From assembly GCF_003334765.1 (NCBI RefSeq), contig NZ_QOWT01000043.1: a DNA stretch of 28,524 nucleotides; one strand, written 5' to 3'. Under the pieces are notes generated by a model. It was not told where the DNA came from, did not search any database, and was given only the letters and a program-made list of their open reading frames with translations. Source of the DNA: Escherichia coli (GTDB lineage: Bacteria > Pseudomonadota > Gammaproteobacteria > Enterobacterales > Enterobacteriaceae). Below, piece by piece: positions 6,804-25,171 of this stretch; position 1 is the first letter of the stretch, and each line of letters opens with the position of its first letter. A program made the translations under genes and the position numbers.

Positions 6804-9353
6804 TCAATTACGAGTTGCAAATTGCGAACTACGTAATGTAATGTTATTTTTCCTTACTGATATTCTTATTTTCTTGGGGGTTCTATTATCTTCAGAGTCA
6901 GTCAAATATCTGGCCAAGACAGGAAGAACCGTGCTGTTAAGTACTGAGTCTATATCCCTAGCTCCAGACTTATCACATTGACAATGATGTGTAATCCAGT
7001 CAATAAGAGAATCATTGTATTCTATCTTATACATCTGACCTGATGCCTGTTCAAAACGTTGGCAGATCTTATCAATTTTAATGAGTACGATATCTCTCAG
7101 TGTTTTGGAATGCAACGGTGTGAACGGAATTAAGTTAGTTCTCCCCATAAATGCCGCCCCAAAATGCTCATTAAACAAAGGAAGAAGCATTTCTTTTATT
7201 CTGTCTCTATTTGTCTCACCATCATTCCATATGTTTGTGATATTTTCACTGGCAAAGTTTGATGTCATTATTATGAGACAATCTCTGAAAGACACCATCT
7301 TACCTTCAGCATCCTCGATAATACCTGAGTCAAATATCTGGAAGAAGAACTCCAGGACATCCGGATGTGCTTTTTCAATTTCATCAAGCAGAATAACACT
7401 GTATGGATTATGACTCACCCTTTCAGTAAGAGTCCCTCCCTGACCAAAACCAACATATCCAGGAGGTGCCCCCTTCAGAGTGGAAACAGTGTGAGCTTCC
7501 TGAAATTCAGTCATATTAATCGTGATGAGTTTATTCTCATCCCCATAAACAAACTCGGCCAGCGCCCTGGCTGTCTCCGTTTTGCCTGTGCCAGAAGGGC
7601 CCGCAAGTAAAAATACCCCATCAGGTTTTACAGGATCTTTAAGATCTGCCCGACAAATAAGAACTTGTGATGCAATAGCGGACATAGCATATCGCTGCCC
7701 CAAAACTCGCTGCTCCAAGCATCTTAACAGACCGGATGCTTTTTGTTGTTCACCATCAAGGCATACACCCAGTGGAACACCTGTCCACCCAGAAACAACA
7801 TCAGCAACACAATTTTTATCCACACACTCAAAAACCATAGGACTGTCTTTCTTATATGCACTTTCCAGTTCTTTTCTGTACATATTCTTTGATGAAATAT
7901 CATCTGAACTTTGTATTTTTGCAACCAGTTCACTTTGATGACGCCACGCTGATTTGAGTTGCTCAAGCTCCTCCTCAAGTTGAGCAATTTTATTTGCAAG
8001 CATTTCCTGACGCAAAACATCTGACCTTTCCTGTGTCAGCAGCGCAAGTTCCCCTTGGTATCTTACCAATGAAGCTTCGACATCCTGAATGGCATCTGGT
8101 GATGTAGACTGAGATACAGCAACCCGAGAACAAGCTGTATCTAACAGACTTACAGATTTATCTGGTTGACGGCGCCCATGCAGATAACGGTCTGATAGAT
8201 GTACCGTTGCAGTTATTGCTTCTTCCCTGATAGAAACATTATGGTGTTTTTCCATCATGGGCAAAAGAGAACGTAGCATTTCCGCTGTGACATCCTGATT
8301 TGGCTCTGCTACTTTTACTATCTGAAAACGCCGGGCTAACGCCCCATCCTTTTCAAAATACTTTTTATATTCTCCCCATGTCGTTGCGGCTATAATGCGC
8401 AATTCTCCACGGGCAAGAGCAGGCTTAAGCAAATTAGCTGCATCAGTCTGTCCCGGAAGTCCTCCTGCACCGATAAGGGAATGAGCCTCATCAATAAACA
8501 AAATAGCTGTGCCATCCAAAGAATTAAGTTCGGTCAACAGTGATTTTAGGCGATTTTCGAATTCCCCTCTGACACTGGCTCCCGCAAGCAGAGCCCCCAT
8601 ATCAAGGGCATGGATCCGGACATTCTTCAGTACATCAGGCACACGGCCAGACGCAATTTGCAGTGCTAAACCTTCTACTATACTACTTTTCCCTACTCCC
8701 GGTTCACCGGTCAGTATTGGATTATTCTGTCTGCGACGAAGCAAAATATCGATAAGTTGTCTGACTTCCTTCTCTCTGCCAGTAACCGGATCTAATTTAC
8801 CTGTTTCTGCCCGCAGAGAGAGATTCTCAGTATATTTACTGAGATATTCATGTGAAGACCTATCGGTGGGACGATGAGAAGCAGAATGCTCTGCTTCGTC
8901 TGAAAAAGAGATAAGTAACTCCTCAGCTACATCCATATCACAACATAACGCATCAGAAACATTGAGAGGAAATATTGAATCTCTGAAATTAATCATAGTA
9001 CTCAAAAAGACAGGGATATCTATATGATCGATTTGCCATTTAGTACTGGCATGTATCCATGTTTTCTCCAGTAGAGTCTGCATCGACTCAGAAAATACAG
9101 GTGAGGATTGTGGTACTGTATTGATACGGATAAGTTCACTTTCAATAGCATTAAGAACCCACTCAGGATTAAATAAGGACTGCTCATAAAGCACTTCGGC
9201 TATATATTTATGTTCCTGCAATAACTTCCATAGAAGATGTAGACAGTCTACTTCATGATGTGACCTTGATATTGCGTAATTAATTGCAGAATCCAGAGTA
9301 TTTCGACTTTCTGGAGTTAATTTATTAATAATTGGTTTCAGATAGATACTCAC
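6804..9353 (-). CDS. clpV: ClpV/TssH AAA+ ATPase (sheath disassembly)
   Basis: 849 aa. Two Walker A motifs (GEPGVGKSS and GPSGTGKTE) with ClpB/ClpV-like D1 and D2 architecture and a coiled-coil middle region. Last gene of the operon. Confidence 0.9.
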   Translation of the reverse strand: MSIYLKPIINKLTPESRNTLDSAINYAISRSHHEVDCLHLLWKLLQEHKYIAEVLYEQSLFNPEWVLNAIESELIRINTVPQSSPVFSESMQTLLEKTWIHASTKWQIDHIDIPVFLSTMINFRDSIFPLNVSDALCCDMDVAEELLISFSDEAEHSASHRPTDRSSHEYLSKYTENLSLRAETGKLDPVTGREKEVRQLIDILLRRRQNNPILTGEPGVGKSSIVEGLALQIASGRVPDVLKNVRIHALDMGALLAGASVRGEFENRLKSLLTELNSLDGTAILFIDEAHSLIGAGGLPGQTDAANLLKPALARGELRIIAATTWGEYKKYFEKDGALARRFQIVKVAEPNQDVTAEMLRSLLPMMEKHHNVSIREEAITATVHLSDRYLHGRRQPDKSVSLLDTACSRVAVSQSTSPDAIQDVEASLVRYQGELALLTQERSDVLRQEMLANKIAQLEEELEQLKSAWRHQSELVAKIQSSDDISSKNMYRKELESAYKKDSPMVFECVDKNCVADVVSGWTGVPLGVCLDGEQQKASGLLRCLEQRVLGQRYAMSAIASQVLICRADLKDPVKPDGVFLLAGPSGTGKTETARALAEFVYGDENKLITINMTEFQEAHTVSTLKGAPPGYVGFGQGGTLTERVSHNPYSVILLDEIEKAHPDVLEFFFQIFDSGIIEDAEGKMVSFRDCLIIMTSNFASENITNIWNDGETNRDRIKEMLLPLFNEHFGAAFMGRTNLIPFTPLHSKTLRDIVLIKIDKICQRFEQASGQMYKIEYNDSLIDWITHHCQCDKSGARDIDSVLNSTVLPVLARYLTDSEDNRTPKKIRISVRKNNITLRSSQFATRN

Positions 9354-9356
9354 TTA

Positions 9357-24692: not shown

Positions 24693-24694
24693 GT

Positions 24695-25171
24695 TTATTC
24701 CTTACTTTCATCGTTTTCAGGATTGCCATTAGTAGTCACCAGCAATTCCTGAAGTTTTTCTTTCAGTTTCTCATTACTTGCAGCCCTGTTTCGTAGGTCA
24801 CAAAGATGCAACCTCAATTCCGATAATTTTCTTAGACACTCAACCTGTTGAATCACATTATCGGGAGAAAAATCATCTTTGCAACTAAACCTCAGTTCGA
24901 CATCCAGTTTTCCTTCATTTCCCGGGATAACACTGTCCACCATAAAATGAGCAGTCGGACTCATTGATGCCATAACTTCATCAAAATTGTCTTTATCTAT
25001 ACTAATGAATTTTCGTTCTCTCAATGGTTTTTCTGACGAAGAGTACTCACCCAAAACCCCGATGACAAGGGGTAACTCTTTCGCAGTTTCAGCATCTCCG
25101 GTTTCAACATCATACGTTATCTGTACTCGTGGGGGGCGGGTTTTATCAAGTTTATGTTGTGTATTGCTCAT
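24695..25171 (-). CDS. tssB: TssB/VipA sheath small subunit
   Basis: 158 aa. ...PPRVQITYDVETGDAETAKELPLVIGVLGEYS... AGGAT Shine-Dalgarno sequence about 6 nt upstream of the ATG at 25171. First gene of the operon. Confidence 0.9.
   Translation of the reverse strand: MSNTQHKLDKTRPPRVQITYDVETGDAETAKELPLVIGVLGEYSSSEKPLRERKFISIDKDNFDEVMASMSPTAHFMVDSVIPGNEGKLDVELRFSCKDDFSPDNVIQQVECLRKLSELRLHLCDLRNRAASNEKLKEKLQELLVTTNGNPENDESKE

Follow-up and report, generated by a model that had tools for sequence, protein, structure and literature searches.

An AT-rich type VI secretion cluster on an Escherichia coli contig corresponds to the AggR-regulated aaiA-P (Sci-2, T6SS-3) operon of enteroaggregative E. 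coli

A 28,524-nucleotide stretch of Escherichia coli DNA (contig NZ_QOWT01000043.1; hereafter the window) carries between positions 6804 and 25171 a block of genes which an earlier note, made from the sequence alone, had described as a complete core cluster of a type VI secretion system (T6SS). The locus raises the questions of which T6SS this is, whether its less recognisable components belong to an intact machine, and what such a machine would deliver. We conclude that the block is almost certainly the aaiA-P operon, also named Sci-2 or E. coli T6SS-3, of the pheU pathogenicity island of enteroaggregative E. coli (EAEC).

Identity of the cluster and its relatives

Comparison of 6804-25171 with complete E. 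coli genomes by megablast gave 100% identity at 100% coverage (18,368 bp) to strains 042 (NC_017626.1, 4893076-4911443), 55989 and others. Residues 15-29 of the TssC protein, ATDDCLEEIINNTRA, matched exactly the published peptide of the TssC2 N-terminal helix (Douzi et al. 2016, PMC5048182), and the published 75-nt aaiA promoter (Yasir 2019, PMC6392122) was found as an exact match on the minus strand at 25363-25437. Taken together, these matches identify the cluster as aai/Sci-2/T6SS-3, the last two names being equivalent (PMC5048182). Its nucleotide sequence is identical to that of the aai cluster of EAEC strains 042, 17-2 and 55989 (Dudley et al. 2006; nomenclature of Journet & Cascales 2016), with which it has in common the gene order, AaiC, the TssC2 helix peptide, the AggR promoter and the flanking insertion sequence (IS) remnants, and we saw no substantive difference. 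In the RefSeq annotation of the 042 locus the genes from tssB through tssH are named, and the Hcp protein is listed as 'AaiC/Hcp2'. The reading of the block as a T6SS cluster was therefore correct, but the earlier reader missed its name; the system is known, named and well characterised, having been described since 2006. Because the whole window differed from 042 at 2 of its 28,524 positions, its source is not 042 itself but another strain with the same island.

Megablast matches to the cluster were obtained in 100 of 5,426 complete E. coli genomes (1.8%); identity was at least 99% in 45 of these and 80-90% in 53. Counting every match, 51 places were chromosomal and 51 were on plasmids. This prevalence agrees with the literature, in which E. 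coli T6SS3 is assigned to subclass i4b and described as rare (1.3% of 131,610 E. coli genomes, PMC12282107).

The closest relative is the T6SS-3 found on IncF plasmids carried by E. coli, Salmonella and Yersinia (for example NZ_CP010181.1, hereafter L002, and the RM9088 pEHEC, PMC10562709), which has the same 15 genes, identically ordered, with a nucleotide identity of 85-88%. We located this cluster on 51 plasmids, 37 of them conjugative (49 from E. coli and one each from Salmonella and Yersinia). The plasmid form also has an IS630 remnant upstream, and a TagA-like gene and a homologue of a 188-amino-acid (aa) protein downstream. L002 differs from the window in that neither the IS3 remnant nor the 4 kb inserted between tssH and the TagA-like gene is present, its Hcp is 67% identical, its upstream region has diverged, and its downstream cargo genes are other ones, including a homologue annotated as 'AvrPphF family type III effector'. 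A more distant relative is EAEC Sci-1 (T6SS-1, subclass i2), which lies on the same pheU island and is likewise a canonical T6SS of subtype i (T6SS-i), with 13 Tss core components and antibacterial activity (PMC5048182). Sci-1 is under control of Fur and Sci-2 under control of AggR; their TssC and ClpV proteins are 38% identical and are not interchangeable (PMC6730261, PMC5048182). The Hcp of Sci-1 can be recognised by sequence, unlike AaiC.

We found nothing that contradicts the identification as aai/Sci-2, and the points that weigh against it are of the nature of caveats. The i4b subclass was taken from the literature, not from a phylogeny of the window proteins. The letters aaiA-P were mapped by gene order and their use in the literature is inconsistent: EC042_4577 is aaiO in Yasir's table (PMC6392122), and EC042_4562 is TssC2 according to Douzi (PMC5048182) but aaiA in Yasir's table (PMC6392122). 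Sequence profiles for TssE, TssJ, PAAR and TssM gave weak matches and that for TssL a borderline one, and Hcp was assigned from a predicted fold at 8-15% sequence identity.

Composition of the machine and its divergent components

Sixteen minus-strand open reading frames (ORFs) tile 6804-25171 with spacings between neighbours of -37 to +27 bp (longest-ORF starts). The earlier note had counted all sixteen as genes of the cluster; the ORFs are at exactly these coordinates, but 15 are conserved genes and that at 13354-13668 is not conserved coding sequence. Families were assigned with NCBIfam profiles and their curated cut-offs. The ORFs, in the order of transcription, are as follows.

24695-25171, minus strand: tssB (aaiA), sheath small subunit (TIGR03358, 160 bits against a cut-off of 97; RefSeq tssB in 042)
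23214-24692, minus strand: tssC (aaiB; TssC2), sheath large subunit (TIGR03355, 672 bits; contains the TssC2 peptide)
22698-23204, minus strand: aaiC, highly divergent Hcp tube protein (AlphaFold2 model with Foldseek; RefSeq 'AaiC/Hcp2')
22266-22688, minus strand: tssE (aaiD), gp25-like baseplate wedge (TIGR03357, 25.8 bits, below cut-off; Pfam GPW_gp25, 1.1e-4)
20471-22273, minus strand: tssF (aaiE) (TIGR03359, 459 bits)
19548-20480, minus strand: tssG (aaiF), RefSeq start, longest ORF to 20507 (TIGR03347, 163 bits)
17553-19535, minus strand: vgrG (aaiG), spike without C-terminal toxin extension (TIGR03361, 342 bits; C-terminus of beta-helix repeat only)
17075-17542, minus strand: DUF6931 protein (aaiH), 155 aa, between vgrG and the PAAR gene (Pfam DUF6931, 4.4e-10)
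16766-17065, minus strand: PAAR protein (aaiI), spike tip without toxin extension (NF033420, 30 bits, below cut-off; three PAAR/PAAT motifs)
15686-16762, minus strand: tssA (aaiJ) (TIGR03363, 229 bits)
15127-15678, minus strand: tssJ (aaiK), outer-membrane lipoprotein (TIGR03352, 18.9 bits, below cut-off; signal peptide and ITAC lipobox, residues 17-20; RefSeq TssJ)
13696-15108, minus strand: tssK (aaiL) (TIGR03353, 253 bits)
13354-13668, minus strand: ORF of 104 codons that fills the 'aaiM' slot between tssK and tssL, probably not a gene (no family match; frame not conserved)
12767-13357, minus strand: tssL (aaiN), DotU-family, C-tail anchored (TIGR03349, 89.5 bits against a cut-off of 89.95; transmembrane segment 175-193)
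9357-12761, minus strand: tssM (aaiO), very divergent IcmF-family membrane subunit without Walker A (TIGR03348, 42.7 bits against 388; IcmF-related_N)
6804-9353, minus strand: tssH/clpV (aaiP; ClpV2), sheath-recycling AAA+ ATPase (TIGR03345, 951 bits; two Walker A/B pairs)

Eight proteins (TssA, TssB, TssC, TssF, TssG, TssK, VgrG and ClpV) scored above the curated cut-off, and the other core families were recognised by weaker profile, motif or fold evidence, so that the full core set claimed for the cluster stands. All parts that define a T6SS-i were found. Both sheath proteins were clear (TssB and TssC, 160 and 672 bits), and the baseplate comprised TssF, TssG and TssK above cut-off together with TssE by its weak match (25.8 bits with GPW_gp25 at 1e-4). 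The membrane complex proteins TssJ, TssL and TssM matched their profiles below or at cut-off (18.9, 89.5 and 42.7 bits) and were further supported by the lipobox, the C-tail and N-terminal transmembrane segments, the IcmF-related_N domain and their conserved position. VgrG and PAAR (30 bits and three motifs), TssA and ClpV completed the spike and its partners, and the Hcp tube protein was identified by the fold of its predicted model in addition to the published secretion of AaiC. In short, the profile search placed TssB, TssC, TssF and ClpV above cut-off, with TssM as a weak match, and the base composition of the block was distinct from that of its flanks.

TssM was unusually divergent. Its single Pfam match was IcmF-related_N at residues 178-344, and it has two N-terminal transmembrane segments. 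The Walker A motif G....GK[ST] was absent, GDSEKNNS standing in its place, and the periplasmic two-thirds of the protein matched no Pfam, NCBIfam or PDB sequence model, though the gene is under purifying selection. Searches of PDB sequences with the TssE-like protein, the DUF6931 protein and TssM gave no match. The position of the DUF6931 gene between vgrG and the PAAR gene suggests that its product is a spike-associated adaptor or cargo.

AaiC (168 aa) gave no match in NCBIfam, in Pfam (even at E<=10) or among PDB sequences (phmmer), and homologues could be detected in Escherichia and Salmonella only, at 60% identity or more. Since these sequence searches found nothing, a fold comparison was needed to recognise an Hcp. 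The AlphaFold2 model, built with 17 homologues, had a mean predicted local distance difference test (pLDDT) score of 75.8 and a predicted template modelling (pTM) score of 0.74. When this model was compared with the PDB by Foldseek, every listed match was an Hcp (three of them Hcp-fusion constructs), with a best E value of 5e-8, template modelling (TM) scores of 0.57-0.66 and 8-15% identity; the matches included 6a2v, 4w64, 1y12, 3he1 and the EAEC Hcp1 structure 4hkh (11% identity). By its predicted fold AaiC is thus an Hcp. The earlier note had listed an Hcp-like protein, and the fold comparison supports that assignment, but sequence profiles cannot make the call.

AaiC is also the fastest-diverging protein of the machine. 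Compared with its L002 counterpart (24878-25396), AaiC (22698-23204) was 67% identical at the protein level, with a synonymous divergence (dS) of 0.89 against approximately 0.35-0.45 in the neighbouring genes and a ratio of nonsynonymous to synonymous substitution rates (dN/dS) of 0.24. Many AaiC alleles, 60-80% identical, were seen within E. coli, which is unusual for a tube protein. The divergence suggests allele exchange, or selection by cargo or by immunity.

The low scores could alternatively be taken to mean that the T6SS is non-functional and decaying, a remnant on an island riddled with IS elements, in which the weak TssM, TssJ, TssE and Hcp matches reflect degeneration and not divergence. 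Such decay would fit a TssM that reaches 42.7 of the 388 bits required and has no Walker A, an Hcp without any profile match, and flanks with frameshifted genes, a tssB fragment and remnants of IS elements. All 15 ORFs are however intact and tightly packed, and comparison with the plasmid relative gave dN/dS values of 0.05-0.37 across all 15 genes and the TagA-like gene (tssM 0.21, aaiC 0.24, tssE 0.13, the DUF6931 gene 0.37), which argues against a decaying remnant; the most conserved component was TssC, at 96.7% aa identity. Furthermore, the full gene set is kept on 47 plasmids, and the published AaiC secretion and Sci-2-dependent competition (PMC6730261, PMC5048182) already refute the idea, to which we give practically no credence. 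The weak matches are better read as divergence within a maintained T6SS.

The 'aaiM' ORF of the historical nomenclature is probably not a gene, which would leave 15 genes in the operon. The ORF had no family match and is left unannotated by RefSeq in 042 and in four plasmid relatives, in all four of which its frame is broken by indels of 1, 4, 14 and 35 nt, with stops in every frame. The tssK-tssL spacer was 72% identical to that of the plasmid relative, against approximately 87-93% for most genes. Insertions are tolerated there: approximately 350 bp in another plasmid relative (L005) and, in the RM9088 pEHEC (PMC10562709), an IS110 lying between aaiL and aaiN. The spacer (13358-13695, approximately 340 bp) is kept in all relatives examined, evolves fast with indels and is a recurrent site of IS insertion. 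Promoter-like matches in the spacer (4, against a mean of 1.8 and standard deviation of 1.5 in shuffled sequence) were not clearly above expectation, and Rfam gave no RNA element in the spacer or in the 5' untranslated region.

Promoter, regulation and flanking sequences

The sequence upstream of tssB contains the elements of the aaiA promoter, which has been mapped experimentally as AggR-dependent (PMC6392122).

25409-25419, minus strand: AggR-binding site of the aaiA promoter, AAAAATGTATC, the exact published string, 237 bp from the ATG as in the publication
25380-25388, minus strand: extended -10 element of the aaiA promoter, TGgTATCAC; the AggR site lies 23 bp upstream

In an aai promoter 21-23 bp are expected between the AggR site and the -10 element downstream of it, and the observed spacing of 23 bp lies in this range. 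AggR, which is encoded on the pAA plasmid, activates the 25 contiguous genes aaiA-Y. Published RNA sequencing of an aggR mutant gave log2 fold changes of -4.4 to -2.7 for the operon and of -1.2 to -2.2 for the downstream transposase pseudogenes and aaiR-U, indicating read-through, with which the lack of a terminator after clpV in a simple scan is in keeping. The exact consensus W7TATC occurred 14 times in the window against 6.25 expected, a weak enrichment. The real aaiA site is not among these matches because of a single mismatch, and the consensus by itself is thus not diagnostic.

The region upstream of tssB in L002 (27364-29016) has diverged and is without the exact aaiA promoter. It contains a consensus AggR/Rns-type site, ATTTTTTTATC, 22 bp upstream of TATACT and 254 nt from the ATG, which hints that control by an Rns-family activator may be ancestral to the T6SS-3 lineage. 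We had considered that the aaiA promoter was specific to the chromosomal lineage, as blastn similarity to the plasmid ends 34 bp upstream of the ATG, but dropped this in view of the consensus site with correct spacing in L002.

As had been claimed, no TagH/FHA, PpkA/PppA or TagF protein was found among the cluster ORFs and the larger flank ORFs scanned, and the same ORFs yielded no component of a threonine-phosphorylation pathway (FHA, Ser/Thr kinase, phosphatase, TagF). The description of the cluster as 'minimal' was nevertheless overstated, given a dedicated AggR-dependent promoter and a TagA-like ImpA_N+VasL gene, the sole accessory gene found in the scan for regulators. This gene and the IS-derived sequences lie in the flanks.

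1434-2588, minus strand: TagA-like accessory gene (probably aaiT), 384 aa (Pfam ImpA_N 1.1e-5 and VasL 2.5e-7; dN/dS 0.22)
5396-6607, minus strand: IS3-family transposase pseudogene (RefSeq; ALIL frameshift pseudoknot at 6212-6327, Rfam RF01497, 116 bits)
25567-26583, plus strand: IS630-family transposase pseudogene, upstream of the operon (RefSeq; partial match to NF033545; also upstream of the plasmid cluster, 87% identity)

In L002 the TagA-like orthologue (73.5% aa identity) directly follows tssH. In the window it is separated from clpV by a 4-kb segment (2653-6666) that is absent from L002 and contains IS3 remnants, a tssB fragment and the gene for the 188-aa protein. From this comparison of gene order the TagA-like gene belongs to the ancestral cluster and has been displaced by a 4-kb IS-associated insertion.

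The GC content of the cluster was 39.0%, against 52.2% in 5396-6803 (the IS3 remnant) and 50.4% in 25567-27867 (IS630 and other remnants), which bears out the earlier description of an AT-rich block fitting horizontal acquisition. The far-left flank (1-5395) was AT-rich too (40.8%) and is part of the same regulon as the cluster. IS sequence does lie on both sides of the block, as the earlier note had said, but the elements are degenerate and of different families (IS3 and IS630), and do not make a composite transposon. That the flanking elements had moved the T6SS block as a unit in this way might be supposed from the IS-derived sequence on both sides and from the sharp step in GC from 39% to 50-52%; we consider it very improbable. 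Both elements are frameshifted pseudogenes, so the two ends do not carry the same functional IS. The IS3 remnant is absent from L002, where the TagA-like gene directly follows tssH, and the IS630 remnant is an old passenger, as it is common to the plasmid lineage at 87% identity. Moreover, the ancestral unit reaches past the IS3 remnant to at least position 1434. The flanking elements are thus better regarded as remnants.

Other features of the flanks are typical of a rearranged island. A second tssB fragment (4908-5003, minus strand, RefSeq) lies between the 188-aa gene and the IS3 remnant, left over from another T6SS locus or from a rearrangement. A 54-bp repeat (2653-2706 and 5354-5407) and near-identical short ORF translations (2601-3002 and 6221-6603) are two remnants of one IS3-type element, which bound a 2.7-kb segment with the 188-aa gene and the tssB fragment. 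Upstream, 26604-27867 holds a fragment of a beta-ketoacyl synthase gene and an IS481-like integrase-core remnant, typical island debris, and 27898-28221 a 107-aa hypothetical ORF without family match. The IS3 ALIL pseudoknot was the only Rfam match in the window, and there was no tRNA gene, hence no island attachment site, within it.

Function and candidate effector

The published work shows that the aai system secretes. According to Dudley 2006, as cited in PMC6730261 and PMC6863884, mutants in aaiB, aaiG, aaiO and aaiP made AaiC but did not secrete it. The genes aaiA-P were sufficient for AaiC secretion in HB101. Sci-2 confers a growth advantage over E. coli K-12 on DMEM (Dulbecco's modified Eagle medium), and ClpV2, for which ClpV1 cannot substitute, binds the TssC2 N-terminal helix (PMC5048182).

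With these results and by homology with other T6SS, from which we infer the roles of the individual subunits, their assembly and firing, the system may be expected to work as follows. AggR, acting in trans from the pAA virulence plasmid, would bind AAAAATGTATC at 25409-25419, 23 bp upstream of the extended -10, and the aaiA promoter would drive the whole minus-strand operon with read-through into the downstream aaiR-U. TssJ as lipoprotein, the C-tail anchored TssL and TssM would form the membrane complex, and TssE, TssF, TssG and TssK a baseplate around the VgrG-PAAR spike. TssA would then prime polymerisation of the AaiC (Hcp) tube and of the TssB/TssC sheath, contraction of which would expel Hcp, VgrG, PAAR and any bound cargo into neighbouring cells; ClpV2 would afterwards bind the TssC2 N-terminal helix and recycle the sheath.

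No toxin domain was found in VgrG, which ends in a beta-helix, or in PAAR, which has no extension. A candidate for the delivered protein lies in the flank.

3067-3633, minus strand: hypothetical protein of 188 aa, coregulated by AggR and probably aaiS; candidate effector and candidate C80-like cysteine protease

In this protein Asp49, His56 (AHGN) and Cys98 (CxSG) were invariant, and a weak match to Pfam Peptidase_C80 was obtained (E 0.035). The five best PDB matches of its model (pLDDT 70.6) by Foldseek were cysteine protease domains of MARTX/RtxA toxins, with E values of 6e-4 to 3e-3 and TM scores of approximately 0.45. Homologues were detectable essentially in E. coli only, one of them, 44.5% identical, being encoded downstream of the plasmid cluster (L002 3401-3979). 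On the basis of this model and of its location we regard the protein as a plausible candidate for an aai effector. The bolder proposal is that it is an unrecognised miniature C80/clan-CD cysteine protease and the missing aai effector, possibly acting in host cells, and separately that aaiM is not a gene and AaiC represents an Hcp lineage invisible to sequence models; that all of this should hold jointly we think rather doubtful.

A related possibility is that host cells are the main or an additional target of the aai system, which would then be a virulence device against eukaryotes rather than an antibacterial weapon. Growth in DMEM induces the operon, a member of AggR's virulence regulon; we saw in it no classical effector-immunity pair of the antibacterial kind, and its VgrG and PAAR are without toxin domains. 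The cluster-associated, co-regulated 188-aa protein resembles the MARTX cysteine protease domain, of a family that is activated by eukaryotic inositol hexakisphosphate (InsP6), and the plasmid cluster is followed downstream by the homologue annotated as 'AvrPphF family type III effector'. The only published phenotype that we retrieved is however the growth advantage over E. coli K-12 (PMC5048182), the match to a protease is weak (E 0.035 and 6e-4, TM 0.46), and the literature searched gave no phenotype in host cells. A role directed mainly or additionally at host cells is in our judgement unlikely.

The window therefore derives from an EAEC-type pheU island, and its rediscovery adds no new biology; aaiC, which it carries, is a diagnostic and epidemiological marker of typical EAEC. 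The small additions made here are to the annotation, namely that aaiM is probably spurious and that AaiC and TssM escape curated models. The candidate C80-like protease and the displaced TagA-like gene bear on the question of what the aai system delivers.

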